NCBI GenBank assembly: GCA_963756875.1
Contig: CAVWPA010000001.1
Location: 160,001-224,000, forward strand
Direction: 5' to 3'
Length of the DNA: 64,000 nucleotides
Source: an uncultured Verrucomicrobiae bacterium
Lineage (GTDB): Bacteria > Verrucomicrobiota > Verrucomicrobiia > Chthoniobacterales > UBA10450
Part shown: piece after piece, positions 549 through 45,087 of the stretch
Position numbering within the stretch: the stretch's first letter is position 1
How the letters are laid out: each line of letters begins with the position of its first letter
Notes under the pieces: generated by a model
The model's input: the letters and a program-made list of their open reading frames with translations, nothing else
What the model was told of the DNA's origin: nothing
Databases searched by the model: none
Translations under genes and position numbers: made by a program

Positions 549-881
549 ATGCCAGATGACGTTCTCAGCTTTGGTCGGCGGATCGCAAATCAGCGAAAGG
601 AATTAGGACTTAGTCTGCAAGAAGTCGCAGACCAAGTTAAAAAAGAAGATGGGGAGACGATATCTCCGCAATACCTTAACGATATTGAACATGACCGGCG
701 ACAGCCTGATTCGAATCACTTGATCCAACAGTTGGCGTCGGCGCTCAAGCTCCCGCCGGAAGTGCTTTATTACGAAGCAGGAAAACTCGGGGACTCCACA
801 CGGGTTCGGAGAGTAAGCGAAGAGAAAATCGTTGCGGCATACAAGGCATTCCGCCGCGAATTGAAAGGTCTAGGCAAATGA
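549..881 (+). CDS. XRE-family helix-turn-helix transcriptional regulator
   Basis: FGRRIANQRKELGLSLQEVA...ISPQYLNDIEHDRRQP HTH_3 pattern. Confidence 0.9.
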   Translation: MPDDVLSFGRRIANQRKELGLSLQEVADQVKKEDGETISPQYLNDIEHDRRQPDSNHLIQQLASALKLPPEVLYYEAGKLGDSTRVRRVSEEKIVAAYKAFRRELKGLGK

Positions 882-1590
882 AGTACGTGCCCGATCGCAC
901 TGGCCGATTCCCCAAGCGCCCGCACTACGAACCAGCTGAACTAGACCAAGAATGTGAGCACATCATCACTGATTTCCTGCGCGATCGTTGCGGTGGTTTT
1001 CGGTTGCCGATACCGACCGAAGCGTTGACAAAGCTCATCGAGAAAGATGCCGAAGACCTTGATCTATTCGCAGACCTATCTGGAGAAGGTAGCGATGTCG
1101 AGGGGGTGACGGACTTCGTCGCTAAATGCAAACCGCGTGTGCGGATTTCCGGCACTCTGTCAGCCCAGCGTAGTGAGAACCGTCTCCGGACCACTCTGGC
1201 GCACGAGTGCCAGGTCACGTGAAGTTCCACGATTTTCTGTGGCAGGTTGAGGTAACAAATCAAAGACTTCATCCGCAGTTCGCACGCGGGACTTCGCCTA
1301 AGTGTCACCGGGGGCGAATCCTTGATGCGCCGTACTCCGATTGGATGGAGTGGCAGGCGGGATACATATCAGGGGGCTTGCTGATGCCGGCCACTGCGAT
1401 TCGGGAAATTACCGGGACGTTCTTGGAAACTCATAAACTTTTCGTTCCCGTGCCGTCGACGGCGAATGAAGCTGGGCAGCTTGTAAATTTGATTCATACC
1501 GCTTTTGCTGTTTCCCTCGAGGCTGCCCGTGTTCGTTTGTTGAAGCTCAAACTGTTAAGCTCCGTCGATCTGGGACCGCAACTGTTCTGA
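878..1590 (+). CDS. ImmA/IrrE-family zinc metallopeptidase (frameshift near 1210)
   Basis: ORFs 878-1222 and 1207-1590 join to give RLRTTLAHEC/GHVKFH (HExxH) and MEWQAGYISGGLLMP; start overlaps the XRE stop. Confidence 0.85.
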
Positions 1591-1601
1591 TTTTATTTTT
1601 C

Positions 1602-1630
1602 TTGCGTTTACGTCAATCCGCGGATACGCT
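1602..1630 (+). promoter_or_regulatory. putative sigma70 promoter for the DUF3892-DUF2235 genes
   Basis: TTGCGT-N17-TACGCT; the -10 coincides with an ATACGCT operator half-site. Confidence 0.45.
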
Positions 1631-1687
1631 TAATGACGGATGCGGATGAACCGCGTTCAATCAATAAAATACGTGAGCAAACAGTAT

Positions 1688-1990
1688 ATGAAAGAATACC
1701 AAGTAACGTGCGTAACGAAGCCGGATCGCTTTAGCAGGCACGAGCATATCACGCATATCGGCAATGTCGCCGATAAGTGGAAGATCACACGCGAGCTGAC
1801 CGTCGAGAAAATCGAATCCAAGCAGGAGGCCTTTTTCACCGTAGATCGCACTACGGGGCGAAAGATGTACGTGGGCGTCGTCCGCGAAGCAGGCCGACTG
1901 CCTTATCTCCGCACACACGCTGACGGAAAATGGAACGATAACTTGCTGGCCCAAGCAGAATGCAACGGGTCGTGCAAATTGATTGGCTAA
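1688..1990 (+). CDS. DUF3892 domain protein
   Basis: QVTCVTKPDRFSRHEHITHIG...YLRTHADGKWNDNLL resembles DUF3892. Confidence 0.8.
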   Translation: MKEYQVTCVTKPDRFSRHEHITHIGNVADKWKITRELTVEKIESKQEAFFTVDRTTGRKMYVGVVREAGRLPYLRTHADGKWNDNLLAQAECNGSCKLIG

Positions 1991-2049
1991 TTAGGATTGG
2001 GGTGGCGAACAAATAATTGCCGCCCCAAATTCCCTGACACGAGGAACGT

Positions 2050-3446
2050 ATGAATATCATAATTTATTCGGACGGCACTGGTCAGCGGGGAGGGCTATTG
2101 TTCGACGAGCGACGCAGCAACATCTACAAGCTGTTTCGGGCAACACGTTGTGGCCCGGATTCGTCTATCAATCCTGCCGAACAATTAACCTTTTACGATC
2201 CTGGCCTAGGCACCGTGCCGCCAGGCCACGGCGGCTCTGGCATCATTGCAGCCCTGTGGCGTTCATTCTACAATCGCGTTAGTCAAGCCACGGGCCTCGG
2301 CATCACGCGCAACATCGTCGACTGCTATGCGGCCACTGTCCAACTTTGGCATCCCGGCGACCGTATCTTTTTGTTCGGCTTCAGTCGAGGTGCTTACACG
2401 GTGCGGCGCTTAAGTGCGGTACTGGCGATGTGCGGCGTTCCCACTCAAGATAAAGGAGCCAGGTCGCTTCGCCGCGATGAAAATACGGCAAAGCGAATCG
2501 CGGTGGAGGGCGTCAAAAAGGTCTATCAACACACTGAGTCAAGAAAGACGTTTGCCACGACTCGGCAAAAAGAGCTGCACGCGCAGCGCGAAGAATTGGC
2601 CCGGCGTTTTCGCGGACGGTACGCGTCAGCTGATCCGACCGACGCAAGCAAAGCGAACGTCTACCCGTATTTCATCGGCGTTTTCGACACCGTGGCTTCG
2701 TTGGCGAACCCGGTTGTAGCAACGTCGACGTTTCTTGTGGCAGTCTTGGCTCTCGCACTTCTTAGCTGCATCCTCGGCTGGTTTGTTTTCCACTTCGGCT
2801 TCTGGTTGTCGTTCGGCGCTGTCACGGCCATTGCTATTTTGATCGCGGCTCTGGCTTTAGTGAAAAGCTTGGTACGGTTCGAATTCGGTCTGCCGATAAA
2901 CAAGAATTGGCGTCCCTTCCATTTCACGGAGGTGCATATCGAGCAATACGAGACGGACCTCAGCACCGAGGTAACATATGCAAGGCATGCGATGTCGATC
3001 GACGAGCGTCGGAAATCGTTTTCGAGGGTGGGATGGGGCGGCTCCGATTCTGACAAGAAGACGCAGGAGGGATGGTTTGAACAACTATGGTTTGCGGGTA
3101 ACCATTCCGATGTTGGCGGTAGCTATTCGGAAAACGAATCCCGGCTATCGGATATCTCTCTCCAGTGGATGCTGGAAGCAGCTGTCAAAGCCGGCCTGAA
3201 ATACGATCCTTCCGTTCTCAAGCTGTTTCCAGACCCGTTTGGTCCTCAGCACGATGAAACCGAAGTAGTTTGTTTCGCTTGGCCCCGAAGTTAACGAGGG
3301 CGATTCCGCACGATGCACCGCTTCACCCTTCCGTCCTTGAGCGTTTCCAGGCCGCCGAAGTACTCGATTACGATACCGTTAGGCGGTACCGACCCGAGAA
3401 TCTTCGCAACCACGATGCGGTAAAGCAGTATTTTGTCGCTGAGTAG
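2050..3446 (+). CDS. DUF2235 (Tle1-like alpha/beta-hydrolase/phospholipase) with internal transmembrane hairpin; frameshifts near 3260-3350
   Basis: IIYSDGTGQ, SNIYKLF, YDPGLGT, GFSRGA nucleophile elbow, GVFDTV, HAMSIDERR, WFAGNHSDVGG; the C-terminus (LHPSVLERF...YRPENLRNH) continues in shifted frames to TAG 3446. Confidence 0.85.
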
Positions 3447-3552: not shown

Positions 3553-5170
3553 ATGCGGAACTGTTTGAAACGAGTCAGACTTGGGGCTGTCTATCCCATA
3601 TTCCTTTTGCTGGGTGGCTGTGGAAATGACACAGCCAGCACCGGGTCAACGCATTATCCTGATCAAAAACTAAAGGCACCGAACCATCTTGACCAAGGAG
3701 TGGTCTTGGCCTGGAATCGTGAATCACCGCCAGCCGACGATAAAGTCAATACAGTTTCCGTTGGTCAGACGTTAGTTGTTCGTGTCCGGAACTTGGATGG
3801 CTGGCTGGTCGATAAACTCAAGGATGGCCGATTGACAGGCGAGCCGGCTATGACACCGGAAGAACGATTTAATTACTTCGTTCTGCAAAAGTTGCGTGGC
3901 AGCGAGAAGGTTGATGATTTTCTCACAAGATATGAAGCGGCTGAGGCATTAGAAACACGACCGTCTTCGACCGTCTCGCCGCTCCCCTCGAATACGAACC
4001 CGGCGCCTAGCAAAATCCCTTCACCACTTCCGCCACTGCCCCCAGGTGTGACGGTAAAACAGCTGCGTGATGCGAGGATTCTTCGAAGCCCTACTTAGCC
4101 ACGTGAAGCGCCAGTTATTTTTGATAATCAACAACAGCCATTCATCAGATCAAAGCTGAAAATCCTGACGCCGGCGTAGTGACGGCAGAGTGAAGGCGAA
4201 GCCAGGCGATACCGTCCAGGAGTTTGATTTTCGGATACGACGTAGGCCAGGCGACGAAGATGCCTGGAACAATCTCTATGATGGAACGCGGGCGATTCAT
4301 GATGTGCGGGTAAGTCTTGGCATTGAACTGGACCAAAGAACATTCGTGCTCGATACGGCTGTGTACCTCAGGCCGACGCCAAGGTTCAACGAATGAAGCT
4401 TGAGCTTTTCAGTATGCATGGCTCTGGGGAACTCTCGCTGTCCTTGCGATTCTGCTCGTCGGCGGTTTTTGGCTTGCTTTGCGCACACCTTTGCTGCGCG
4501 ACATGGATATGCCAATGCGCGCTGATGGGTGGCCCCAATTCAGTCTTTCGCGGGCTCAACTCGCCTTTTGGACTGTACCTCGTGGTTGGAGCTTTTCTCA
4601 TAATCTGGCTTGTCACTGATCGTCAGACACCTTAAACCCCACTGTTCTCGCACTCCTGGGAATTAGCTGTGCGACCACGCTGGCTTCAAAGATGGCAAAC
4701 TTCACACTGGACGGGGGAACGACCGTGTCCGAACTGGCGAGAGCGGCCAGGCGTACTAAGCCGGTAAGCCAAGTACGGCAGGAACTTGCAACGGAGTTGA
4801 CGAACCTTGAACAGCTGGCCGCAACCCCTGCAAGCGAGGATGCCCAAAACAAACCAAATGTCCTCGCCGCCAAGATTCAGCAACTGCGGGATGATCTGGA
4901 CTACTTGAAGCACAGCCGGGTGACTAGATTTTTCATCGATCTCCTGGGAGAAACGGGACGGTAACATTGCACCGACTCCAGATTGTCGTGTGGACACTCG
5001 TTCTAGGGTTCGTATTTATTTCGAGGGTGTTGCGAGACCTGTCGATGCCGGTATTCAGCGATACTCTTCTCGGTCTTATGGGTCTAAGTTCGGCGACCTA
5101 CGTAGCACTCAAAGTTCCGGAATTGAAGAAGACGCAAGGACGGATTGATTCCATAGCCAAGGCTTCCTAG
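3553..5170 (+). pseudogene. membrane (lipo)protein of unknown function, broken by several frameshifts (or assembly errors)
   Basis: Lipobox-like LLLGGC; fragments 3553-4098, 4190-4396, 4393-4635, 4692-4964 and 4967-5170 (HRLQIVVWTLVLGFVF...LLGLMGLSSATY) read as one protein. Confidence 0.6.
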
Positions 5171-5211
5171 TAACGGGGGACCATAGCAGAGGGCGCGATC
5201 TGACTTCGAAC

Positions 5212-5241
5212 GTCCACCCGTTGCCCCCCTGGCGCTGGAAA
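5212..5241 (+). repeat. cassette-boundary repeat R1 (left half)
   Basis: GTCCACCCGTTGCCCCCCTGGCGCTGGAAA, near-identical to 6351-6382. Confidence 0.85.
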
Positions 5242-5312
5242 ATCACCTAGTCCCCCAGGTCGTGCAGAGGGGCGCTATTGACGGGTTAATGGATCGGGCG
5301 ACGAATACATCC

Positions 5313-6336
5313 ATGACAACTGCAACTCCTTGGCCTATTTGCTTCATTGCTAGCGCACTGGGCAAAAGAGAAGTCGATCAGATTTACGATAAGGGAATTC
5401 GCCCCGTGCTACGAAAGCTTCGCATCAGACCGGTGCGAGTCGACCGCATCGAGCACAACGATGACATCGACGACAAAATTCTGGCCCTGAATACAACGCT
5501 GCGAACTCTGTATCGCTGACCTCACCTTCGCACGCCCATCGGTTTATTATGAAGCCGGCATGGTTCACGGCCTTAGCAGGCCTGTTGTTTTCATCGCTCG
5601 GTCCGATCACTTCCGAGACAAGGACATCGATCCGCACGGGAACTTGCGGGTTCACTTTGATTTGCAGATGAAGAATGTCATTTCTTGGACCGGACCTAAT
5701 GCGGCATTTCGTAGCCGACTTCAGGGGCGGCTGAGAAAAGTGATTCAGCCTGTCCTGTTAAACCGAAGAAGGGAAGACGCTCTTTTGGAGCAGCGCGCTG
5801 CTTTTAAAACAATGCCCGTATTTCACCAGCTAGCGCTGATTCGCAGAATGACCGTGCAACTGCTACCAAGTCGAGGTTTCGGGGCCCTACGCCAGCGCGT
5901 CCATCGCGAGATGTCGAGCGTGTCCGAAACTGCACTGCGATGCATGAAAAGGAGTGCGACGGCCTCCGAAGATACAATCGAAATGTACGCTTTCGATCGT
6001 CTTACCAGCTCGCATTTAAACGAATGGTGGCGCTGGTCAATTCTGGGACGGTCGACAGATGATCCGACAAAGCACCATTACATCGTTTACCTAGCCATCA
6101 GTCTGAGGCGGGTCTCCGAAGCGACGTTTCGTTCCGCGCTTCCGCTCTTCAGACCGGTTGCCCCGTATCTTTTAACGCGCACCGAGCCGTCTGACCTTAC
6201 TGGCGGGGTGCCGCACACGATCTTTTTCTCATTGATTCAAAACGTTATGTCGATAGAAGAGCTCAGACAAAATCTTCGAGACCTTCTGGGGTGGCTTGAT
6301 AAGAATAAGTTGAGCTATCGCCCTCAAAGTGCCTAA
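5313..6336 (+). CDS. nucleoside 2-deoxyribosyltransferase-like N-terminal domain plus unknown C-terminal domain (frameshift near 5490)
   Basis: CFIASALGKREVDQIY...RVDRIEHNDDIDDKI joined to IADLTFARPSVYYEAG..HGLSRPVVFIAR. Confidence 0.75.
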
Positions 6337-6350
6337 GTTTCAAGGATAGG

Positions 6351-6404
6351 GTCCACCCGTTTTGCCCCCCTGGCGCTGGAAATTCGGTCTACTCCTGTCC
6401 AGAA
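6351..6404 (+). repeat. cassette-boundary repeat R2
   Basis: GTCCACCCGTTTTGCCCCCCTGGCGCTGGAAATTCGGTCTACTCCTGTCCAGAA, 15 bp after stop 6336. Confidence 0.85.
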
Positions 6405-6513
6405 CTGTCCACACGACTGTGCGGAGTTAATTCAATCGGAATTCTTTTAGCGTCCGTACCTGTCCTGATCTGTCCACCACGGGCCTAACGAGTCACAAAA
6501 TCGCCAAAAATCT

Positions 6514-6551
6514 TTGCGAACGAGACGCTCTACCAGCTGAGCTATACCCCC
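6514..6551 (-). tRNA. tRNA-Ala(CGC) 5' half only (positions 1-38), truncated at the end of the anticodon loop
   Basis: GGGGGTATAGCTCAGCTGGTAGAGCGTCTCGTTCGCAA followed by non-tRNA sequence; intact D-arm, G3, anticodon CGC at 6518-6516; no T-arm follows. Confidence 0.9.
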
Positions 6552-6570
6552 GAAATCTTTCAACTGCCGA

Positions 6571-6599
6571 GACTTAACGCGTGAAATCAGCTTGGTCAA
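6571..6599 (-). promoter_or_regulatory. possible promoter for the tRNA half
   Basis: TTGACC-N17-TAAGTC about 20 nt upstream of tRNA G1; -10 imperfect. Confidence 0.35.
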
Positions 6600-6611
6600 A
6601 AACCTGCCACC

Positions 6612-6664
6612 CCACCCGTTTTGCCCCCCCCGATGATTTTCCGTCAGTCCACTCCTGTCCAGAA
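6612..6664 (+). repeat. cassette-boundary repeat R3
   Basis: CCACCCGTTTTG(C)8GATGATTTTCCGTCAGTCCACTCCTGTCCAGAA. Confidence 0.85.
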
Positions 6665-6950
6665 AGTCAGGGTCGAACGTTGTGAGAATCGGTTCATTCT
6701 TCAACTCAAAACGCCCAACTGCGAGGGAAAAGTATCAAGGTAGAGCGGGATTTTTCAAGCGAGAAGGTCTGGGTCACTCGGGTTCGGATTAGGGCCGATT
6801 GTTTTGGCTTTCCGACCGAGGCTGAATAAAGTCCCTGCAGCAGGTAGAATCCATATGAAACCAAGTATTAGGTTAACCCAACTGTTCGCGGTAGTTTTTG
6901 CGCTCTGCACGATGACAGCGAGCGTCAGCTCGGCCAGGCAAAAGCCACCA
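6642..6950 (+). repeat. ~310 bp direct duplication (leader plus signal peptide), second copy ~7592-7903
   Basis: Near-identical sequence from CGTCAGTCCACTCC through ...GGCCAGGCAAAAGCC in both copies. Confidence 0.9.
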
Positions 6951-7589
6951 CCTGCTGGTCCAACCGGCGCGACCGGGGCGACTGGCCTAACTGGAGCCAC
7001 AGGCGCGACAGGTCCGACCGGCGCAACCGGCGTTGGTGTAGCTGGAACGACTGGCGCGACTGGGGTGATCGGCGCTACTGGCGCTACTGGCGCTACTGGC
7101 GCTACTGGCGCAACGGGAGCAATATCACAATTTGCTATGTTCTTTGGCTTAACATCTGGAACAGGAAATGCCGGACCAACAGATTACGCTGCAACCATTG
7201 CAGTTAAAAGTGCTGCTGGTACTGGACGAGTTCCTTTTCCACAGGATGGTCCAACAGCAGGAGGTATCATTCGTGTTGACGCTTCCAGCTTTATATTGCC
7301 CGACATTGGAACGTATGAAATTACTTTTAGGGTTCACACCACAGAGCCGGGTCAACTACAGCTTGAGCTTAATGGTGTTGATTTACCTGAGACTGTTGCC
7401 GTTAACGCGAATCCAACTTCGGGCGGACACCCTATTATTGGTAACTTCTTTATTACAACAACTTCTATTAATTCGGTATTGGCTGTAGTTAACCCTAGCG
7501 GTAACGCTACGGCGCTTACCATTACTCCTGCCGATGGAGCGGATACCCATGCAAACTCTCAGAGCTTAGCGATTAAAAGGATTGAATAA
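6855..7589 (+). CDS. secreted collagen-like protein 1 (signal peptide, GXT repeats, globular C-terminal domain)
   Basis: [18 protein letters not shown] signal; about 18 G-X-Y triplets; beta-rich C-domain reminiscent of BclA-type heads. Confidence 0.85.
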
Positions 7590-7591
7590 TG

Positions 7592-7614
7592 CGTCAGTCC
7601 ACTCCTGTCCAGAA
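7592..7614 (+). repeat. cassette-boundary repeat R4 (right half)
   Basis: CGTCAGTCCACTCCTGTCCAGAA, 2 bp after stop 7589. Confidence 0.85.
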
Positions 7615-7806
7615 AAGTCAGGGTCGAACGCTGTAAGAATCGGCTCGCGCCTCAACTCAAAACGCCCAACTGCGAGGGAAAAGTATCAAGGTAGAGCGGG
7701 AATTTTCAAGCGAGAAGGTCTGGGTCACTCGGGTTCGGATTAGGGCCGATTGTTTTGGCTTTCCGGCGGAGGCTGAAATAAGGTCCCTGTATCCGGTAGA
7801 ATCGAT

Positions 7807-8565
7807 ATGAAACCAAGTATTAGGTTCACCCAACTGTTCGCGGTAGTTTTTGCGCTCTGCACGATGATGGCAAGCGTCAGCTTGGCCAGGCAAAAGCCTC
7901 CCCCAGTAGGCCCCACGGGTCCAACCGGCGCGACCGGCGCTACAGGCGCAACTGGCCCACAAGGCTCACCGGGAACGCAAGGTTCACCCGGGCCGCAGGG
8001 CTCACCGGGGCCCCAGGGCGTAACGGGCTCTACCGGAGCAACCGGAGCAACCGGAGCAACCGGAGCAACTGGCGCAACTGGCGCAACTGGGGCAACAGGT
8101 GTTGGTGCTACAGGAGCAACGGGAGCAACGGGAATTGTCGGCGCAGCAGAATTTGTAAGAACCATTCAGGTGCCAAATGATTCTGTGCCCCCAGGTACTG
8201 CGTTCACAATCGATACAGAAGTGTTCAATAATATTCCCGCAGAAATTGTTGCTTCAGCCGGAAGTGGCGGAACTGTTTTCACACTCACAGCGGGCACATA
8301 CGTCATAGACTATGAAATGAGTTTGACGTCAGCAGGTTCTATTGGCATTTACTCCGGACCTGACAGTGGATCTTTGGCTCTAGATACAAATACTGTTTCA
8401 GGGTCTACTACCGCCACAACATGGATTCATGGACGAGCTATTATTGTAGCGGTGGATTCGCTGACTTTCGGAATTAGTTCTGTTGTTGGTACTGCTTCAA
8501 TTGGACCTGCTGGAATTGATCCCGGTTCTTACATGATCCGACTCACCATTTTGAAAATAGAGTAA
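7807..8565 (+). CDS. secreted collagen-like protein 2 (same N-terminus, different C-terminal domain)
   Basis: [18 protein letters not shown]; about 25 G-X-Y triplets (GAT/GSP/GPQ); divergent C-domain. Confidence 0.85.
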
Positions 8566-8636
8566 ATTAATCGCTCCCAGTTTTCGAACTCAACGCCGGT
8601 AGTGGTGCCTCACGGCGGTACAAGAATGATGTAAGG

Positions 8637-8687
8637 CCACCCGTTTTGCCCCCCTGATGATTTTCCGTCAGTCCACTCCTGTCCAGA
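8637..8687 (+). repeat. cassette-boundary repeat R5
   Basis: CCACCCGTTTTG(C)6TGATGATTTTCCGTCAGTCCACTCCTGTCCAGA, near-identical to R3. Confidence 0.85.
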
Positions 8688-8740
8688 CTCTGGTAGCAAA
8701 ATTGTCGCATCGCTGCTTGCCTGCCATAGATTCGGTAATC

Positions 8741-8833
8741 ATGTCCCTCTTGTACAAATACTTCGATCCATGCGGCATCAAAGTGCTGCAAACCGGAAGG
8801 CTTCGAACATTAGATCCATCGACCTTCAACGAT
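8741..8833 (+). pseudogene. truncated N-terminus of a DUF2971-like protein
   Basis: MSLLYKYFDPCGIKVLQTGRLRTLDPSTFND resembles the LYKY...L...P..FNDP start of DUF2971 proteins; similarity stops abruptly. Confidence 0.5.
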
Positions 8834-9137
8834 GAACATCGGGATTTACTTCTTCTATCCGGCCTCCGCCGGTGGTCCCGGTCCGCGCTATCTTGAACGG
8901 ACGGTGCAACAAGCCGGAGACGAGAAGAAGATTGTTTTGCTCAAAACCGGGACTTATCCTGCGGAAAATGCCGGCGACCTGACTCGAAATCCGCCCGTGC
9001 TGTCGTCGGCAAACACGTTGTATTTTATTTTGTGCGACCAGCCGGAACGCGATGCGGTTTTGAAACGATTTCCGGGACGCAAAATCTTTGTTTACCAATA
9101 CCCAGGTGATCTACGCAGAACAGCCGACAGCCAATAA
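8832..9137 (+). pseudogene. probable C-terminal remnant of a membrane/glycosylation-related protein
   Basis: Protein-like ORF starting at the junction with the truncated gene, directly upstream of the GT2. Confidence 0.35.
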
Positions 9138-9193
9138 GTCCGGTCTAGCCGCATGAGAGAAAGCCTTAATCGCCGGATCGTACGGGAGCCCTC

Positions 9194-9883
9194 ATGAAAC
9201 TTTCTGTGGTCATTCCCTGCTTTGACGAACGAGGAACAATCGAAAAGATTGTCGCGGCGGTGCGCGCGGCGCCTCTGGAGGATCTTGAGATTATCGTCGT
9301 CGATGACGGCTCGACGGACGGGACGACCGCTTTGTTAAAGGAAAAAGTTTCTTCAATCGCGGATCGAATTATTTATCAGCCACGTAACATGGGGAAGGGC
9401 GCGGCACTGCGTGCCGGTTTTGCGGCCGCTACCGGCGACATCATCCTCGTGCAGGATGCAGATCTTGAATACAATCCGGCGGATTACCCGGTTTTGCTCG
9501 AGCCAATTTTATCGGGGAAAGCCGATGCGGTTTTCGGTTCGCGGTTTATGGGTGGACGCCCGCATCGGGTCCTTTACTTCTGGCACATGGTCGGGAACAA
9601 ATTTCTAACGCTCCTTTCGAACATGTTTACGAATCTCAACCTGACCGATCTGGAGACGTGTTACAAAGCGTTTCGCGCGGAGCTGCTGAAGAGTCTCGAT
9701 CTTCGGGAAAATCGTTTTGGATTCGAACCGGAGGTGACTGCGAAATTGGCAAAAACAAAATGCCGTATTTACGAAGTAGGCATTTCCTACAATGGTCGGA
9801 CTTATAACGAAGGAAAAAAGATCGGTTGGAAGGATGGTTTCCAGGCGATCTACGCGATCTTGCGCTACAATCTTTTTTCGTAG
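9194..9883 (+). CDS. glycosyltransferase family 2 (DPM1-like)
   Basis: [46 protein letters not shown]. Confidence 0.95.
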
Positions 9884-9925
9884 AAGCCAGTTCAACCTGG
9901 CCGTTCACGTTTTGCGTTTGCGGCC

Positions 9926-11437
9926 TCACGCTGCCAGGTGCGACTCTGATACTCCGGCCATCAACCGGAGTACCGCCTCCTGAGAGGCTTCCGCGCGGGA
10001 CAGTTCCCCGACAATCTTACCCTCGCGCATCACGATGATTCGCGTGGACAGATTGAGCACCTCGGGAAGTTCGGAAGAAATGAGCATCACGGCCAGGCCA
10101 TTTTGCGCGAGGTTGTCGATCAGTGCGTGAAGTGAGGCCTTTGCGCCAACATCGACGCCGCGCGTGGGTTCGTCGACGATCAGCAGCTTGCCACCGTGGG
10201 CGAGCCATTTGGCCAGAACAATTTTTTGCTGGTTGCCGCCGCTGAGCGAGTTGACCGGCGCTTCGAGTGAAGCGGCTTTGACGTGCAAGCGCTGGAAATA
10301 CTCCGCGGCCATCTGTTTTTCTTTTGTTCGATCGAGGACGCCCAGTTTTCGCAACCGATCCAGCGACGCCAGGCTGACGTTCGCCCGGCACGGCATTCCA
10401 AGTATGCAGCCCTGCCGTTTGCGATCTTCCGGAACGAGGGCAATTCCCGCGCGCATGGCAGCCCGGATGGAACCTGGCGGAAGTACGCTTCCATCGAGCA
10501 CAACTTCGCCGGTCGCCTGCGGGTCCAGACCGAAAACGGCTTTCGCGAGTTCACTGCGCCCGGCGCCGACGAGACCGGCAAACCCGACAATCTCTCCGGC
10601 GCGGATTTCAAAGGAAACGTTATGGAAACGTCCGGGCGAACTCAGGTTTTGAACGCGTAATATTACGTTGCGGGCTTTCGCGGAAAGATATTGCGGGAAG
10701 TACTCTTCCACGGAACGACCGATCATCATGCGGACCATAGCGTCCTGCGTCATTTCCGCGCGACCGAGCGTTCCTACGTACTGGCCGTCGCGCAAAACGC
10801 TGATCCTGTCGCACAACCGGAAGAGTTCAGGCATCCGGTGCGAGATATAGATCATCGTGATTCCACGGCTCTTGAGATCTTCGATTAATTTGAACAGCGA
10901 TTGCGCCTCCGGATCGGAGAGTGAACTGGTGGGCTCGTCAAAGATCAAAATTCGCGGATTGGCGCCGACGGCGGCGGCTATTTGAACCTGCTGTTCCTGT
11001 GCGGTCGAAAGATCGCGCATGTTTTGCCGTACATTCAGATGGACGCCGATCGCGCCAAGCAATTGTTCCGCGCGACGGGTCATCTCAGTGCGGTCGAGCA
11101 GGACCCGAAGCTTTCTAGGGTATCGCCCCATACAAAGATTTTCCGCAACACTTAGGTCCGGGCAGAAGGCGAGCTCCTGATGGACCATCGCGATTCCGGC
11201 ATCCATCGCGTCGCGCGGCGAGTTAAAGAGGTGACGCAGTCCGTCGATCAGTATCTCGCCGCCGTCGGGCTTGTGAATGCCGGCGAGGATTCTTCCGAGG
11301 GTCGATTTTCCAGCGCCGTTTTCGCCTATGAGGCCATGACATTCACCCGCCTCAATCCCCAGTGTGACATTCCGTAGCGCTGTGACGCCGCCGAATACCT
11401 TGGTGATGGAGCGAAACTGGATGAACGATTTCGCCAT
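9926..11437 (-). CDS. monosaccharide ABC transporter ATP-binding protein (RbsA/MglA type)
   Basis: GENGAGKST, two ABC domains, LSGGNQQK, DEPTRGVDVGAK. Confidence 0.95.
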   Translation of the reverse strand: MAKSFIQFRSITKVFGGVTALRNVTLGIEAGECHGLIGENGAGKSTLGRILAGIHKPDGGEILIDGLRHLFNSPRDAMDAGIAMVHQELAFCPDLSVAENLCMGRYPRKLRVLLDRTEMTRRAEQLLGAIGVHLNVRQNMRDLSTAQEQQVQIAAAVGANPRILIFDEPTSSLSDPEAQSLFKLIEDLKSRGITMIYISHRMPELFRLCDRISVLRDGQYVGTLGRAEMTQDAMVRMMIGRSVEEYFPQYLSAKARNVILRVQNLSSPGRFHNVSFEIRAGEIVGFAGLVGAGRSELAKAVFGLDPQATGEVVLDGSVLPPGSIRAAMRAGIALVPEDRKRQGCILGMPCRANVSLASLDRLRKLGVLDRTKEKQMAAEYFQRLHVKAASLEAPVNSLSGGNQQKIVLAKWLAHGGKLLIVDEPTRGVDVGAKASLHALIDNLAQNGLAVMLISSELPEVLNLSTRIIVMREGKIVGELSRAEASQEAVLRLMAGVSESHLAA

Positions 11438-11440
11438 GCC

Positions 11441-12448
11441 TTATTTTTTACCGAGCCATTTCTCCCAATTTTTTCCGAACCCATCGACGTTTTCTTTCGT
11501 TACCCGGGTTAACGGATCGATGATGGTTGAACTGGGCGGGTTCTCTTTATTGACGATCTTGTCGAGTAAAACTTGGACCGATTTGGTGCCCCAACCGTAG
11601 CAATCCTGAGCGAACAGCGCTTCCACGTAGCCGCTCTTGACGTAATTCAACTCCGCCGGCAACGCGTCGGCTGCTACCACCTTGATTGAGCCGGGCGGCC
11701 ACTTGAGCGCGTCGGCGGTGAAGAGCGGCCAGCCGCCGATCATGGCCCAACCTTGAATTCCGGGATTGGCGTTCTGGGCGGTTTGCACGGCTTCGGCGCC
11801 TTTCTCCGGAGTCTCGGCGTGATAAAACACACCGGGATCGTTCAACTTCATGTTTGGAAATTTGGCGAGCTCTTCCTTGGCGCCGGCGACGCGCTTTTGT
11901 AAATTCGGGGCGCTCTGGTTGCCTCCGAGAATCGCGACGGTACCTTTCTCATTCATCGCCTTGGCCAGCTCTTCCATGATTCGCGCGCCGCAGGCGTGCG
12001 CATCGCTTCCATAAAAGGCGAAGCGTTTGCTATTGGGCGCGTCGGAATCGAAGCACATGACCGGAACACCTTTTTCAACGGCCTTGTCGATGGAAGGTGT
12101 GACAGTGTTTGCTTCCGAACAGGAAATAGCGATCCCGTCAACGCCTCGGCGGGCGAGGGCCTCGATCGCCTCGGCTTGTTTGGTGGCGTCCTCGTCGTTC
12201 GGAGTTCGAATCTCGATTTCGACATCGGCGTTGTACTTCGGGCCAAGTTCTTTGGCCGCGTCGCGCGCGCCGGATTGCGCCGCCTGGAAGACATCGTTTG
12301 TCAGGCTTTTGCCAAGAAACCCGATTACAATTTTGCGTTTGCCGCCCTCTGCGGACGTCGGCGCTTTCTTGGTGCAGGCGGTCAGAGCGATCGCAGCGCA
12401 AGCAAAGGCCGTGGCCAGTTGGTGAAACTGAACGTGATGTCTATTCAT
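11441..12448 (-). CDS. sugar ABC transporter substrate-binding lipoprotein
   Basis: Lipobox ALTAC; RbsB-like motifs (GVPVMCFDSDAP). Confidence 0.92.
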   Translation of the reverse strand: MNRHHVQFHQLATAFACAAIALTACTKKAPTSAEGGKRKIVIGFLGKSLTNDVFQAAQSGARDAAKELGPKYNADVEIEIRTPNDEDATKQAEAIEALARRGVDGIAISCSEANTVTPSIDKAVEKGVPVMCFDSDAPNSKRFAFYGSDAHACGARIMEELAKAMNEKGTVAILGGNQSAPNLQKRVAGAKEELAKFPNMKLNDPGVFYHAETPEKGAEAVQTAQNANPGIQGWAMIGGWPLFTADALKWPPGSIKVVAADALPAELNYVKSGYVEALFAQDCYGWGTKSVQVLLDKIVNKENPPSSTIIDPLTRVTKENVDGFGKNWEKWLGKK

Positions 12449-13551
12449 GGGATGACGGTTTCTGTTTTTGCTTCCTTTAAATGGTGACGACGGGTTCGGA
12501 GATAGCTGCTTACCCGATCAAGCGATACCGCAACGATGATCGCCAGGCCGATGATCACAAGGCGGTATTCCTGAGCGAGCCGTAGAATAATGATACCATT
12601 TTCGATCAGCGCGATCACGAGCGTGCCCAAAAGCGCGCCGAGAGCGGTGCCGCGACCACCGACCAGACTTGCGCCGCCGACCACTGCCGCAGCGATCACG
12701 GTAAGCTCGTAACCCGAGCCGGTGCTGGTGGAAGCGGTTCCGAATCTTCCCAGTGAGACCATTCCAGCTACGCCCGCCGCCAGGCCGGCCAGCGCGTACG
12801 TGCGCAGTTTGATCCAGCCCACGCGTAGTCCGCTAAAGCGTGCCGCTTCCTCGTTGCCGCCAATCGCGTACGTTTCCCGGCCGGCAACCATCATTCGCAA
12901 ATAGAACCATCCCAGCGCGACGCAGATGAGCATGATAATAAGAGGCATCGGCTCCAGACCGAACAACTCCAGTCGCATAAATCCCGTGGTAAAAGCAGGC
13001 GGCAGAGTTTTTCCAGCGGCGGGCAATGTTTTTTCCGGGGGCAAAACATTCGCCAGACCGCGGAAGATACTCATCGTGCCGAGCGTTACGATAAATGGAT
13101 GCAATGAAAGTCCTGTAACGAGTGCGCCATTAATGGCGCCACAGAGCAGGCCGATACCGAGTGGCACGAGAATCGCGACAGGCAACGTCTGCAGCGCCGG
13201 CGCATTGGCCGGCAACGCCTGCAGAGCGGAAGCCCCGCCGAGTGCGGACAACGCCATGATCGATCCAACGGAAATATCGATCCCGCCAGTGATGATCACA
13301 ATCGTCATGCCGATGGCCATGATTGCGTAGTACGACATTGGCGTGGCGATGCCGTCGATGAAGTTATCGAAATTTAAGAACGTGTTCGGTTTGCCCGGCG
13401 CGGCATCATACCAGCCGTAGATGCTCAAAATCGTTGCAAGCAGCAGGACCACGAGCGCCAGACCAATTTCCTGCGCGACAGAAAGACGCGGTCGAGAAGG
13501 AAGCTGCTCGACCGTGGCAGGCGGCGTTTCGCCAGAACGCGATTCTTTCAC
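12445..13551 (-). CDS. sugar ABC transporter permease (RbsC type)
   Basis: GMTIVIITGGIDISVGS, YAIGGNEEAARFSG, GYELTVIAAAVVGGASL. Confidence 0.95.
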   Translation of the reverse strand: MKESRSGETPPATVEQLPSRPRLSVAQEIGLALVVLLLATILSIYGWYDAAPGKPNTFLNFDNFIDGIATPMSYYAIMAIGMTIVIITGGIDISVGSIMALSALGGASALQALPANAPALQTLPVAILVPLGIGLLCGAINGALVTGLSLHPFIVTLGTMSIFRGLANVLPPEKTLPAAGKTLPPAFTTGFMRLELFGLEPMPLIIMLICVALGWFYLRMMVAGRETYAIGGNEEAARFSGLRVGWIKLRTYALAGLAAGVAGMVSLGRFGTASTSTGSGYELTVIAAAVVGGASLVGGRGTALGALLGTLVIALIENGIIILRLAQEYRLVIIGLAIIVAVSLDRVSSYLRTRRHHLKEAKTETVIP

Positions 13552-15770
13552 GGCTTCACGGTTGGAGACGGCTGCGCAGTTGGAGAAGGCAGCCCGGCCA
13601 CAACGATTCCCTTTGTTTCGGTTCCGCGCCCCTCTAAAACTCCATTCTCCGTTATCAACCGGACCTCGACTGGTCGATCGGGAATTTGCATGCGGCCCTG
13701 GCGTTTTTCGACGCCCACGACAACGGATTCGCCTTCACGCCGTGCTCGATAGGTCGTTAACGCAAAATTTCCTCGCATATAATCGAAACCATCTCCGGCA
13801 TCTTCGTAAAGATTTCCTCGTGCCTGCCCACTTTGGTCAAGGCAAACAAGCAATGTAAGCGGATCGAGCGATGCCTCATTCGTGTTTTGCACCACCCGAC
13901 CGAGAGGAACGATCGCGCCGCCGTGAATCTTCACTTCCGGTTGATAGCCATCTTTTTCCCGGTCGCCATCGAGCAGCGAAACATCGCGCCAGATGCCTTT
14001 TGGAAGCTTGGGATCTGATGCCCATGGCGGGACGACAAGGAGATCGGGGCCGAAGAGAAAGGCGCTTTCTTCGGCGCGCAGCTCCGGATCTTTTGGATCG
14101 GCAAAGAAGACGGGTTGCATGATCGGTTCGCCGGTTATCGAAGCGTTGAATGCGAGCGTGTAAAGGTAGGGCAACAGCCGATAGCGCCGTTCCAAGGCGG
14201 TGCGAGCCACATTTTCGAATTTGGCACCGAACCTCCATGGCTCCTGGAATTGGCTGTCGACTGAGGCGTGCGCGCGACAGAAAGGATAAAACACACCGGT
14301 TGCGATCCATTTTCCGAAAAGGTCCGGTGTTGCATTGCCTTCGTATCCACCAATATCTGCGCCGCTGAGCGGCTGGCCGGAAAGGCTGAGATTCAGCGAC
14401 ATCGGCACTGACGTTTTCAAATATTCCATTCGCGCCATGTTATCGCCGGTCCAGGTAGCCGCGTAACGCTGACCGCCGAGATGCGTGGAACGGGTCAGCA
14501 CAAATGGCCGTTTATCGGGGCGAACTTTTAAAATTCCCTCGCGCGTGGCTGCTGTCTCCAACATTCCATAGACGTTGTGGTACATGCGGTGCGGGCCAGG
14601 CGGCAGATTCCCTCCTCCGCGATGAACGATGTCCTCAGGCATTGTCCAGTCAGGCGCGTTGAATACAGCGGGTTCGTTCATGTCGTTCCACACGCCATCG
14701 ACACCTTTTGCGATGAAATTCCTGTACAAATCTCCCCACCAATGTCGGGCATCCGGCATCGTGAAATCGGGAAAAACGCACATGCCCGGCCAGACTTCGC
14801 CTTCGTAATCCTTGCCATGCGGTTTCTGCACCCACAAACGGCGTGCGCTGCCGGAGTCGTAAACAAAGTAACCTCGCTCAGCCTTGACTCCGGGATCAAT
14901 CATCCAGACCGAGTGAAAGCCATTGTCATGCAGGTAGTCGTTCGTCGCCTTTGGATCGGGAAACCGTTTCGGATCGAAAGTAAAAATCCGGTAACCGTTC
15001 ATGTAATGGATATCGAGCCAGATGACATCGCACGGCAGATGACGTTTGCGGAATTCGCTCGCGATTTCGCGCACCTGGGCATCGGGATAGTAAGAGTAGC
15101 GACACTGATGAAATCCTAGCGCCCATCGCGGAGGAAGCGGCATTGCGCCAATCAATTCGGCGAGGCCGCGCATGACGGCTTGCGGCGAGCTGCGGTCGAT
15201 GACAATCACACGAAATGCCGGACCCTCACTTTTAAAAACGATTTCGTCGGATCCGGTTTGCAGTTCGGACTTCCACGTCGTGTCAAAGAGCACGCCGAAA
15301 GCGGTTCCATCCGGTCGAACACCGAGTACCCAGGGATGGGATTGATACAGCCGGCGGCCGTTATCTTTTTTGTAGGCGAAGTTGTCGGTGTTCCAGATCT
15401 CGATCGATTTGTCGTTGCGCAACAGCGGACCGCTTACTTCGCCGGTGCCGTACAAGCTCGCGTCCTTTGGCACTACGAGCGATGCGCTCGCTTTGCCATT
15501 CCCGGCGCTGAACTCTGGAACAAGCGTCCAGCCCCGGGGCATCGGACCTGATTCTCGCGGCGGAGCGACCAGCGCCAGCGAAGGCGTTTTAAGGGAATTG
15601 TATCCTTCTGGAACAAAGAGAACGATTCCGCGACCAATTTGTGCGGCGCGCTCGATCTTTATTCTCTGGGTTCCGGCAGAAAGAACGGGATCAGCCAGCG
15701 CAAGAACGAGCCAAGGAACCGCGAGAAAACGCGTTGTGTTCGAGAGTTGTCTGGCGTGCGAATGCTTCAT
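13548..15770 (-). CDS. glycoside hydrolase family 31 alpha-glucosidase with signal peptide
   Basis: DVIWLDIHYM, catalytic WNDMNEP, WTGDN, GADIGG; start chosen at MKHSH. Confidence 0.95.
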   Translation of the reverse strand: MKHSHARQLSNTTRFLAVPWLVLALADPVLSAGTQRIKIERAAQIGRGIVLFVPEGYNSLKTPSLALVAPPRESGPMPRGWTLVPEFSAGNGKASASLVVPKDASLYGTGEVSGPLLRNDKSIEIWNTDNFAYKKDNGRRLYQSHPWVLGVRPDGTAFGVLFDTTWKSELQTGSDEIVFKSEGPAFRVIVIDRSSPQAVMRGLAELIGAMPLPPRWALGFHQCRYSYYPDAQVREIASEFRKRHLPCDVIWLDIHYMNGYRIFTFDPKRFPDPKATNDYLHDNGFHSVWMIDPGVKAERGYFVYDSGSARRLWVQKPHGKDYEGEVWPGMCVFPDFTMPDARHWWGDLYRNFIAKGVDGVWNDMNEPAVFNAPDWTMPEDIVHRGGGNLPPGPHRMYHNVYGMLETAATREGILKVRPDKRPFVLTRSTHLGGQRYAATWTGDNMARMEYLKTSVPMSLNLSLSGQPLSGADIGGYEGNATPDLFGKWIATGVFYPFCRAHASVDSQFQEPWRFGAKFENVARTALERRYRLLPYLYTLAFNASITGEPIMQPVFFADPKDPELRAEESAFLFGPDLLVVPPWASDPKLPKGIWRDVSLLDGDREKDGYQPEVKIHGGAIVPLGRVVQNTNEASLDPLTLLVCLDQSGQARGNLYEDAGDGFDYMRGNFALTTYRARREGESVVVGVEKRQGRMQIPDRPVEVRLITENGVLEGRGTETKGIVVAGLPSPTAQPSPTVKP

Positions 15771-16037
15771 TGATTGCGACACCCGCGAGCGGCGACCATT
15801 GTTATCACTATGATCGGCTGCGACCAAGCGAGGCAAGCCCGCTTCCGCGCAAGGAATCCTTCATTGCGCCCGCAATCGAGCCGCGATCGTGCCCAAGGCG
15901 CTTTAGAGATGACCGCGTTTCGCCCTCTTCACCAGAATGAATGGAAGCCTGGAGAGCAGCTAAAAAACGGGTGATAATCTCGACACAGGAGACTCAGGTC
16001 GAGCTGTTATTCAGCTCTTTGTTCATGGCGTGATAGC

Positions 16038-41586: not shown

Positions 41587-41588
41587 AT

Positions 41589-41704
41589 TCTGGCGACGTC
41601 CTACTCTCGCACGGCCTGTCGCCGTACTACCATCGGGGCTGCAGCGTTTCACTTCCGTGTTCGGAATGGGAACGGGTGGTGCCACTGCGCTAGAGTCACC
41701 AGAG
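41589..41704 (-). rRNA. rrf: 5S rRNA
   Basis: CCACCCGTTCCCATTCCGAACACGGAAGTGAA...GAGAGTAGGACGTCGCCAG. Confidence 0.96.
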
Positions 41705-42042
41705 TCCGATGCCGGGACGGGCGGTTTCGCCGCTGTCGCGCGAGGCAAGCCGATATCGAACTCTGGGGACTGGCGTGATTCGTGATTGGTTATCCGCCTA
41801 CGCCACTACGGCGCGGCAGGTGTCGTTACAACGGATGGTCACTTTCCCTTGTAACCTTTGTAACGGTTTTAACCCTCTTAACGTTTCAACGGTCAATTTT
41901 TCAAAGAACACGCTAGTTCGCTGACAACTACATACAGGGAGGGAAAGTAAACGTTTAAGGCTTCGTTTTGTTTTGAGATCTTTTGATCTTCTCTGTGTGC
42001 CGTTGCCTTCTTGCGAAGGCAACGGGTTAACAGAAAAGTAAA

Positions 42043-45087
<3,045 letters not shown>

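Follow-up and report, generated by a model that had tools for sequence, protein, structure and literature searches.

Repeated sites in a Chthoniobacterales contig as probable remnants of elements serially inserted into tRNA-Ala

Introduction

As the Islander survey describes them, islands of its class encode a tyrosine integrase and have an attP that carries a fragment of the target tRNA gene, regenerating that gene upon integration; their ends are an intact tRNA gene (tDNA) and a fragment of it in the same orientation, the crossover is centred on the anticodon, and tandems occur (PMC4383910). The survey counts 125 tandems, and a 5′ fragment in 159 of 3919 islands (PMC4383910). Serial integration is also described for cis-mobilizable elements (CIMEs) of the ICESt1 type, integrase-less derivatives that keep both attachment (att) sites and are stacked at one target (PMC5704250), and for the ssrA island arrays of Dehalococcoides, where repeated integration at one small-RNA gene builds a region of high plasticity (PMC3146451). 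In the abundant, free-living Prochlorococcus, the account of the tycheposons describes cargo elements with tyrosine recombinases at a few tRNA genes, where newcomers push older elements inward and partial tRNAs and degenerate remnants lie within the island (10.1101/2020.12.28.424599). Here we analyze a locus that, together with its relatives, shares several of these traits, the likeness to tycheposons being one of architecture alone. It lies in a 64,000-nucleotide stretch (hereafter the window) of an uncultured Verrucomicrobiae bacterium of the Chthoniobacterales (contig CAVWPA010000001.1, positions 160,001 to 224,000), and consists of five copies, R1 to R5, of a bipartite repeat, set among cargo genes and a displaced piece of a tRNA-Ala gene.

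A preliminary description of this DNA took the repeat for the boundary of single-gene cassettes in an integron-like array and did not recognize the architecture as a named system. We find that the repeat belongs to the arms of att sites, as a module of them, and is no crossover site of the attC kind, and that the copies are probably what is left of elements serially inserted into tRNA-Ala, the window holding a decayed tandem array. The architecture is that of tandem accretion of tRNA-targeting islands, along with integrase-less derivatives of the CIME kind. Island accretion at tRNA genes is known; this family, from soil Verrucomicrobia, is undescribed and belongs to the uncommon class that replaces the 5′ half of its target. 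Searches of full-text literature yielded no paper linking Udaeobacter or Chthoniobacter with these sites, and no description of the family in Chthoniobacterales.

Results

The repeats of the window

Both parts of the repeat were searched for separately over the whole 64 kb, with 100 shuffles as a control. The left part (CCACCCGTTTTGCCCCCC) has exact copies at 6353, 6612 and 8637, and the right part (GTCCACTCCTGTCCAGA) occurs at 6387 (1 mismatch), 6647, 7597 and 8671, all on the + strand; no further copy of either was found in the 64 kb even at 3 mismatches. Chance expectations are 0.04 and 0.08 matches, respectively, and the 3 left-part and 4 right-part matches were each reached in 0/100 shuffles. 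R1 was recovered solely by an unfiltered profile search (nhmmer --max, E = 1.2e-4, profile positions 3-38). It matches positions 12-46 of the arm A described below at 91% by blastn, appears as a direct repeat of 96% identity (5221-5244 vs. 6362-6385), and lacks the remainder of arm A, the tRNA half and the promoter. R4 matches profile positions 34-65 by nhmmer and begins 2 nt past the stop codon of collagen gene 1, while R5 has neither a tRNA half and promoter upstream nor the leader of arm B downstream (class 'none/beta/other' in our cross-tabulation). The five same-orientation copies of the preliminary description are thus real.

The gaps from stop codon to repeat are 41, 16, 2 and 71 bp, respectively, for R1, R2, R4 and R5. 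Counted from R1, the left-part spacings are 1141, 259 and 2025 bp with genes between copies, and a CRISPR array was rejected on these grounds. Folding of R2, R3 and R5 as DNA (5 strands) gave z-scores from -0.60 to +0.44, i.e. no hairpin, and no inverted repeat was found within the sites, in agreement with the earlier view that they are not attC, dif or CRISPR sequences. The phased TGTCC units prompted a comparison with the ends of Tn7-like or other transposons. This too was rejected: all modules are direct, and the sole inverted pair (TGTCCACACGAC, 4985 and 6406) is weak, 3 of 100 shuffles giving 2 matches.

A composite junction at a displaced tRNA half

R2 and R3 lie within a composite junction made up of arm A, a displaced 5′ half of tRNA-Ala(CGC), a block upstream of this half and arm B (Table 1). 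The R2 module consists of an 18-mer, an alpha spacer and three phased GTCC-type units; a second cluster of GTCC units lies in arm A at about 6450-6480, and CTGTCCWGAWCTGTCCAC is present twice in this arm (6395 and 6460). The tRNA half (6551-6514) is identical at 37/38 positions to positions 1-38 of an intact tRNA-Ala(CGC) in a related genome (locus L062; see below), scores 19.7 bits with the Rfam tRNA model, under the gathering score of 29, and breaks directly after the anticodon-loop sequence TTCGCAA, a known sublocation of island crossovers. ARAGORN called no tRNA in the 64-kb window and the tRNA-Ala 3′ half has no match anywhere in it. What had been called a split tRNA-Ala is therefore a lone 5′ half: the identification as CGC half holds, the split gene does not. 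A group I intron was rejected together with the split tRNA, Rfam finding nothing but the weak tRNA match over 4000-9500 at E <= 10.

The half and the 60-nt block upstream of it (97 nt in total) are 88-91% identical in L044/45, L052/53, L034 and L063/64/68, and the layout of the block is also found ahead of intact tRNAs. From this sequence pattern, the block would act as the tRNA promoter; a consensus scanner did not flag a promoter in it. Positions 1-156 of arm B are kept at 79-87% in >20 loci, ahead of unrelated genes, and within the window R3 and R4 head an upstream block that is 93% identical (6663-6831 vs. 7614-7782). Two further elements were seen by consensus match alone: a promoter-like TGGACA-17-AATCAT on the - strand inside R3 (6661-6633) and R5 (8685-8657), facing the tRNA half, and a terminator-like hairpin (GGTTCGGATTAGGGCC) with a T-run just past arm B in each of the two collagen upstream blocks (6781-6796 and 7732-7747, + strand).

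This is the single crossover-type junction of the window, and no unit is bounded by two such junctions. R1, R4 and R5 are truncated, and two of the supposed cassettes are broken genes. The single-gene intervals are therefore not individually bounded by recombination cores.

Table 1. Array features and neighboring genes, in window coordinates (ORF, open reading frame).
Feature	Position	Strand	Content or evidence
R1, remnant of a degenerate alpha-type (distal, A-arm) module	5212..5245	+	18-mer with 2-nt deletion, alpha spacer
Arm A (distal element arm)	6340..6514	+	contains R2 module 6349-6412; ends at crossover junction
Displaced tRNA-Ala(CGC) 5′ half	6514..6551	-	acceptor 5′ strand, D arm, anticodon stem 5′ strand, anticodon loop
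Element-type upstream (putative promoter) block of displaced half	6552..6611	-	TTGACC, ~16-17 nt, TTAAGT, ~20 nt to tRNA 5′ end
Arm B (tRNA-side arm)	6611..6771	+	R3 module 6611-6672 (18-mer, beta spacer, GTCC units), ~100-nt conserved leader
R4, arm-B remnant without 18-mer and spacer (B positions 31-192)	7592..7754	+	blastn to B positions 31-192, 94%
R5, beta-type module (B positions 1-52)	8634..8687	+	exact 18-mer and right part; blastn to B positions 1-52, 96%
Run of short ORFs in different frames	4190-4396, 4393-4635, 4692-4964, 4967-5170	+	ORF list
Cargo gene in two frames (earlier label 'NDT-like')	5262-5519 + 5560-6336	+	ORF list
Collagen-like secreted protein 1	6855..7589	+	Pfam Collagen 2.5e-6, BclA_C 1.5e-9
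Collagen-like secreted protein 2	7807..8565	+	Pfam Collagen 2e-13
Short N-terminal gene fragment (earlier label 'DUF2971-like', unconfirmed)	8741..8830	+	sequence and ORF list

The sites are tied to three tRNA genes in related genomes

We scanned 185,579 species-representative genomes with the exact 18-mer; the resulting loci are designated by L-numbers. The scan gave 108 loci, 85 of which, on 66 contigs, were grouped as Chthoniobacterales-type, the other 23 being single matches in unrelated taxa (our own chance estimate is ~17). The record labels of the 66 contigs are mostly Chthoniobacterales, Spartobacteria, Udaeobacter, Verrucomicrobiae or Verrucomicrobiota; a few contigs are labeled only 'uncultured bacterium' and two as other phyla. 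L005 (whole locus) and L035:10001-10240 come from metagenome-assembled genomes (MAGs) labeled Solirubrobacterales and Acidobacteriaceae and carry a verrucomicrobial-type site with a tRNA half, an indication of either mis-binning or transfer. The 18-mer is found at one or two neighboring places in each of four long contigs or chromosomes (OY969764.1, OZ244652.1, CAVULI010000003.1 and CAWFGO010000001.1; 1.7-4.5 Mb).

In 38 cases a module lies about 60 bp (30-90) upstream of an intact tRNA gene, on the opposite strand and divergent from it, the tRNA being Ala-CGC (29 cases), Ala-GGC (5) or Val-TAC (4). The edge of the 18-mer far from the tRNA stands at a fixed 76-80 nt from the tRNA 5′ end. The search of other genomes that the preliminary description had proposed places these 38 cases at tRNA-Ala(CGC) for the most part, with varied genes between sites. 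Between genomes, the chromosomal flank 3′ of the tRNA is syntenic; the one on the 5′ side varies. One flank common to two species (L029:10550-16686 and L075:10219-16419, 87-91% identity) abuts the intact tRNA 3′ end in one species and the 5′ side of the displaced half in the other; the whole block of tRNA plus array appears to be inverted between these two loci.

Conserved arms meet the tRNA at the anticodon loop

Segments of the window used as blastn queries delimited three conserved blocks, 6340-6514 (A, ~166 nt), 6515-6611 and 6612-6771 (B, ~157 nt), and the 259-bp spacing of the A-half-B block is kept in several genomes. Arm A is kept at 70-86% over ~165 nt in many genomes and always abuts a tRNA 5′ half. 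The whole junction of ~420 bp is almost the sole similarity between arrays of different genomes (window 6350-6767 is 84.5% identical to L044 in a match of 420 bp, and 81.8% identical to L005 in one of 422 bp). In an alignment of ten sequences, arm A begins with the 18-mer and three GTCC-type units ~10 bp apart, followed by 4-5 units nearer the junction, and arm B consists of the 18-mer, three units and a leader of ~100 nt. On this sequence pattern, the GTCC units and the 18-mer are putative protein-binding arm sites. The first ORFs after arm B are unrelated across 25 distinct loci; the leader therefore belongs to the site and not to a gene, and the idea that arm B serves a single gene family as its 5′ leader was rejected for the same reason.

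The tRNA half used as a query gave 61 matches, 35 inside intact tRNAs and 26 counted as displaced 5′ halves (19 genomes), one of which (L019) reads as a full-length tRNA uncalled by ARAGORN. Full arm A is directly abutted by 15 of the 26. The junction (marked by a slash) falls in the anticodon stem-loop, ...TTCGCAA / AGATTTTTTGCGG for Ala-CGC and ...TTTACACCGAG / TTTTTGCG for Val-TAC, and likewise for Ala-GGC. The joining of homologous arm A to three tRNAs at one position argues for independent site-specific events. The repeat, which had been read as cassette boundary and crossover point, is instead a module of the two arms, and the break lies at the anticodon loop.

Since it is a 5′ half that is displaced, the regenerated gene must obtain its 5′ half and promoter from the incoming DNA. 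In line with this, 11 of the 27 displaced halves lack the 18-mer upstream and have different promoters, of a sigma-70-like kind, which fits the original chromosomal site and a module that arrives with the element. The remaining 16 have the element-type block, its 18-mer lying at 76-80 nt. The two forms of the module also differ in context, a tRNA 5′ half lying upstream of 38/54 beta modules and of 1/25 alpha modules. Arm A is found directly beside an intact tRNA in L032, and we read L013 as a hybrid of alpha spacer and B leader. L071:925-4899 has a displaced 5′ half of tRNA-Val located 3′ of the intact gene, an arrangement unpredicted by simple stacking; over 488 bp, the response-regulator gene beside this half shares 89% identity with a 0.66-kb unit of L080 that has a module on either side.

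A tyrosine integrase gene lies near the module in six related genomes

Clustering of the ORFs of these loci, followed by scanning of representatives, identified a recombinase family whose member in L062 (10321-11415, 364 aa) matches Pfam Phage_integrase at 1.1e-12. By tblastn, homologues start 240-430 bp past the tRNA-side module and in the same orientation in L062, L004, L028, L072, L002 and L025, the adjacent tRNA of L025 being a displaced half. In a seventh genome (L076/L097) there is an integrase pseudogene only, deeper in the unit. An inverted integrase copy, also a pseudogene, is found in L019, a second contig of the L002 genome, where two facing arrays occupy 8135-16163, with arm A and half on one strand, and the inverted pseudogene and modules on the other. 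The family comprises 1759 database clusters at E <= 1e-10, named as tyrosine recombinases or integrases of Chthoniobacterales, Luteolibacter or Verrucomicrobia, and its full-length members stand at 58-83% identity. Against solved structures the match is marginal (Tn1549 Int, 6emz, E = 0.0097). The family is distant from the integrases of integrons and from Xer, the relatives' integrase reaching 24.1 bits on the XerA/integron-integrase model of NCBIfam (NF040815) vs. a cut-off of 220 bits. The tyrosine integrase and anticodon-loop crossover that the preliminary description had invoked are in this way borne out in the relatives.

One element, in L004, is complete. It is 7.3 kb long, begins with the displaced half, continues with cargo (genes for a sugar ABC transporter and for an SDR), int, module and promoter, and closes with the intact tRNA. 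On either side lies a copy of a 229-bp direct repeat (193/229 identical) that stops exactly at TTCGCAA; the 18-mer is degenerate in the displaced copy and intact beside the active tRNA. An intact tDNA and a same-orientation displaced fragment bracket an element in L004, L006, L031, L053, L076/97, L018/98, L073 and L075+L082. Two of these, L006 (3.3 kb) and L031 (6.7 kb), have no integrase and keep both ends, with the intact tRNA at one and arm A plus half at the other.

Arrays carry variable cargo

At least two modules are found on 21 contigs, in a single orientation on 19 of them, and the units range from 0.7 to 11 kb. We scanned 110 array ORFs, 24 from 4 loci and 86 of at least 150 aa from a further set (16 contributing of 30 loci examined). 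Two of them are recombinases by Pfam, an IS110 transposase and the integrase of L004; the fragments of integrase genes in L019 and L076 were seen by tblastn only, and no conjugation or mobilization genes were seen among these ORFs. The cargo includes glycosyltransferases, ECF sigma/anti-sigma pairs, Nramp, a lanthipeptide cluster (LanB/LanC, in a unit of L073), an RHS toxin, Ser/Thr kinases, collagen-like proteins and transporters. The cargo gene beside arm A is homologous in L006 and L044 (965 bp, 76%), at different array positions. A tRNA-anchored array of variable gene content, as first proposed, is thus upheld by cargo that differs between genomes; the repeat is not scattered in the manner of a REP sequence, and a recombinase accompanies copies of it in 7 genomes.

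Genes in and around the array of the window

The ORF run at 4190..5170, in the unit that ends at R1, looks like one broken gene and has no family match in Pfam, NCBIfam or PADLOC. The cargo gene at 5262..6336 is probably frameshifted; it has no Pfam match at E <= 10, and its protein-atlas leads are weak (0.76-0.80, with Nuc_deoxyrib_tr on 22% of one cluster). The fragment at 8741..8830, likewise lacking a Pfam match at E <= 10, runs into the start of ORF 8832-9137 and marks the right edge of recognizable array material, ordinary genes following. The labels 'NDT-like' and 'DUF2971-like' given earlier to these two genes accordingly find no confirmation. The two genes called collagen-like do match Pfam Collagen. 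They have a common leader and Gly-X-Y repeats, BLASTP similarity being confined to the first 33 aa (30/33, 91%, signal peptide), and their C-terminal domains differ, with BclA_C in gene 1 alone; the pair looks like a swapped-head surface-protein family.

The window ORFs that had remained without a name were scanned with PADLOC and NCBIfam, with no useful result. By tblastn of 22 window ORFs against the 18-mer loci we found no syntenic relative, the matches coming from collagen repeats, GT2 and ABC-transporter families only. To the left of the array (549-3294, + strand) lie an HTH_XRE gene, a weak M78/ImmA-like ORF, a DUF3892 gene and a Tle1-like (DUF2235) phospholipase-family gene, in a stretch with a GC content of 0.50-0.55 vs. 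0.56-0.60 right of ~9900. This stretch is island-like and, with its broken ORFs, reaches as far as R1. The window also holds large-subunit (42042-45086) and 5S (41588-41703) rRNA genes on the - strand. Neither a 16S rRNA gene nor any tRNA gene was found in its 64 kb, and the rRNA genes may therefore not be linked here.

Discussion

The anatomy of these sites, their recurrence, the position of the junction and the association with an integrase lead us to the following model. Elements of this family would encode a tyrosine integrase of ~365 aa and carry an attP of ~330-420 bp, composed of arm A, the anticodon-loop crossover core, a tRNA 5′ half, its promoter and arm B. A module of the 18-mer and three GTCC-type units ~10 bp apart would lie in each arm, the alpha type at the outer end of arm A and the beta type at the start of arm B, just upstream of int. 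Integration into tRNA-Ala(CGC), or into tRNA-Ala(GGC) or tRNA-Val(TAC) in sister lineages, would proceed by crossover at the anticodon loop. The element would bring a new 5′ half and promoter, restoring an intact tRNA at one end. The previous 5′ half would be pushed, along with its promoter and the older arm B, to the far end, beside the arm A of the new element. Repeated insertion would stack units in one orientation, the youngest next to the tRNA.

The window would then be the old end of such a stack. A younger body from the left would end in arm A (R2), followed by the displaced half and promoter, and the older units would begin at arm B (R3), with the youngest material and the intact tRNA beyond the left edge. 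R1, R4 and R5 would be arm modules that survived deletions of the rest of their junctions. This order of insertion and decay is the one we infer; signs of decay in the window are several broken cargo genes and the missing integrase. Units lacking an integrase could possibly be mobilized in trans.

A number of observations weigh against serial insertion by such elements. The 64-kb window contains no integrase, no intact tRNA-Ala and no second crossover junction: tblastn with two family integrases (E <= 1e-4) found no integrase, as the preliminary description had noted, and Phage_integrase is absent among 20 ORFs in the 1-13.5 kb part of the window. In the relatives, the L062 integrase is the only clearly intact copy, that of L004 has an in-frame stop in its N-terminal part, and the others are truncated or frameshifted, some of these broken copies coming from long-read MAGs in which indel errors are possible. 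The sample was gathered by exact 18-mer, and the seeming invariance of this sequence is partly built in. The tRNA-side module is not universal, since the intact tRNAs of L006 (6663-10201) and L073 (1707-10374) have a distal arm-A/half junction and no such module. Lastly, orphan modules are frequent (16/54 beta modules without an upstream half, 11/25 alpha modules without the rest of arm A). The simplest account from the sequences would be deletion between direct modules 259 bp apart, or more distant ones; recombination at the module itself would fit equally.

The latter is what the integron-like capture platform of the preliminary description supposes, with the module as recombination site and integrase-less cassettes excised and re-inserted by an integrase encoded elsewhere. 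Most units indeed have no recombinase, with two Pfam recombinases in 110 array ORFs, they are small and diverse in cargo, about 27/79 modules stand without a tRNA half, a homologous gene is found at different array positions in L006 and L044, and the integrase family is abundant. As orphan modules and integrase-less units with intact ends (L006, L031) are common, this reading keeps a minority probability, although we judge it unlikely. The sharply bounded, conserved junction lies at the anticodon loop and not in the module, which is part of arms of ~160 nt, and position-specific alpha and beta forms are expected of arm sites rather than of interchangeable crossover sites. Where an integrase is present it sits inside the tRNA-proximal unit, as in ordinary islands, and its remnants, along with other pseudogenes, indicate decay. 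In the window, the point of truncation differs between R1, R4 and R5, and two of the cargo genes are broken. The sites form no hairpin, and the integrase of the relatives is far below the integron-integrase cut-off (24.1 vs. 220 bits). What stands of the integron-like picture is the variable, tRNA-anchored array and the tyrosine integrase; the repeat as crossover site and units bounded by recombination cores do not. A related idea, which we regard as doubtful, is tRNA-anchored gene capture across Chthoniobacterales, including the abundant soil genus Udaeobacter, with small integrase-less units moved in trans by the family of ~365-aa integrases. In that scheme the boundaries of a unit would be the composite junction, or perhaps nothing more than the module, and each insertion would also install a new 5′ half and promoter for tRNA-Ala or tRNA-Val. 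If it were true, the array would function as an integron in which a tRNA gene takes the place of attI/attC.

The constant spacing of 76-80 nt between the tRNA 5′ end and the distal edge of the 18-mer, the location of the module between tRNA and int, and the promoter-like match in R3 and R5 could also be taken to mean that the 18-mer and GTCC units are a regulatory region common to the tRNA and to divergent int or cargo promoters, copied passively by segmental duplication and playing no part in recombination; the decay of the 18-mer in the displaced copy of L004, while it is intact beside the active tRNA, points the same way. We find this very unlikely as a full explanation. The alpha module is at the far end of elements, ~165 nt away from the crossover, with no tRNA or int nearby, native tRNA-Ala upstream regions have no module (11/27 displaced halves), and the module is found on three tRNA species only. 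The regulatory and arm-site roles are not mutually exclusive, and integrases are known whose arm sites overlap the int promoter. That the copies are a dispersed repeat of the repetitive extragenic palindromic (REP) or miniature inverted-repeat transposable element (MITE) kind, or a chance repeat unrelated to site-specific recombination, is extremely unlikely. Several copies of a short, intergenic sequence that does not code for protein do lie within 3.5 kb; yet the three exact copies fall within 2.3 kb with none elsewhere in 64 kb, and even contigs or chromosomes of 1.7-4.5 Mb have the 18-mer at only one or two places, a distribution that contradicts this reading. The sequence is always linked to tRNA-Ala, tRNA-Val or fragments of them, and has neither terminal inverted repeats nor a hairpin. 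Serial insertion of elements into tRNA genes is thus the account we retain as probable.

The 18-mer with arm A, tRNA 5′ half and arm B provides a searchable signature for the gain and loss of accessory genes in abundant soil bacteria that are barely cultivated. The family is also a clear example of those rare islands by which the 5′ half of a tRNA gene is replaced, and in which the element has to carry a working tRNA promoter. For annotation, island finders based on the integrase would miss most of these units, and a lone tRNA half of this kind should not be called a split tRNA or a pseudogenized tRNA of unknown origin.

Compared with the islands of the Islander class, the elements described here also bring a promoter, the conserved 60-nt block traveling with the half, and their arms carry a duplicated module whose 18-mer is common to three tRNA targets. 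Most units here have no int, and the integrase filter of Islander, as that survey presents it, would therefore reject them. Elements of the ICESt1 type, in the source cited, integrate at gene 3′ ends and are associated with conjugative elements, on which they ride (PMC5704250), whereas no conjugation or mobilization genes were seen here. The tycheposons, as they are portrayed in the account cited above, differ in that no replication or packaging modules were seen in our arrays, and the Dehalococcoides arrays in that the target is described as the tmRNA gene (PMC3146451). With integrons, our arrays share a single orientation of variable, mostly recombinase-less units at a fixed anchor, and a recombinase of the tyrosine family. 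They differ in the absence of attC hairpins, the junction being an anticodon loop flanked by arms of ~160 nt, in an integrase that is not IntI-like by its NF040815 score and that lies inside the first unit, co-oriented with the modules, and in units that are often multi-gene and have leaders of their own.

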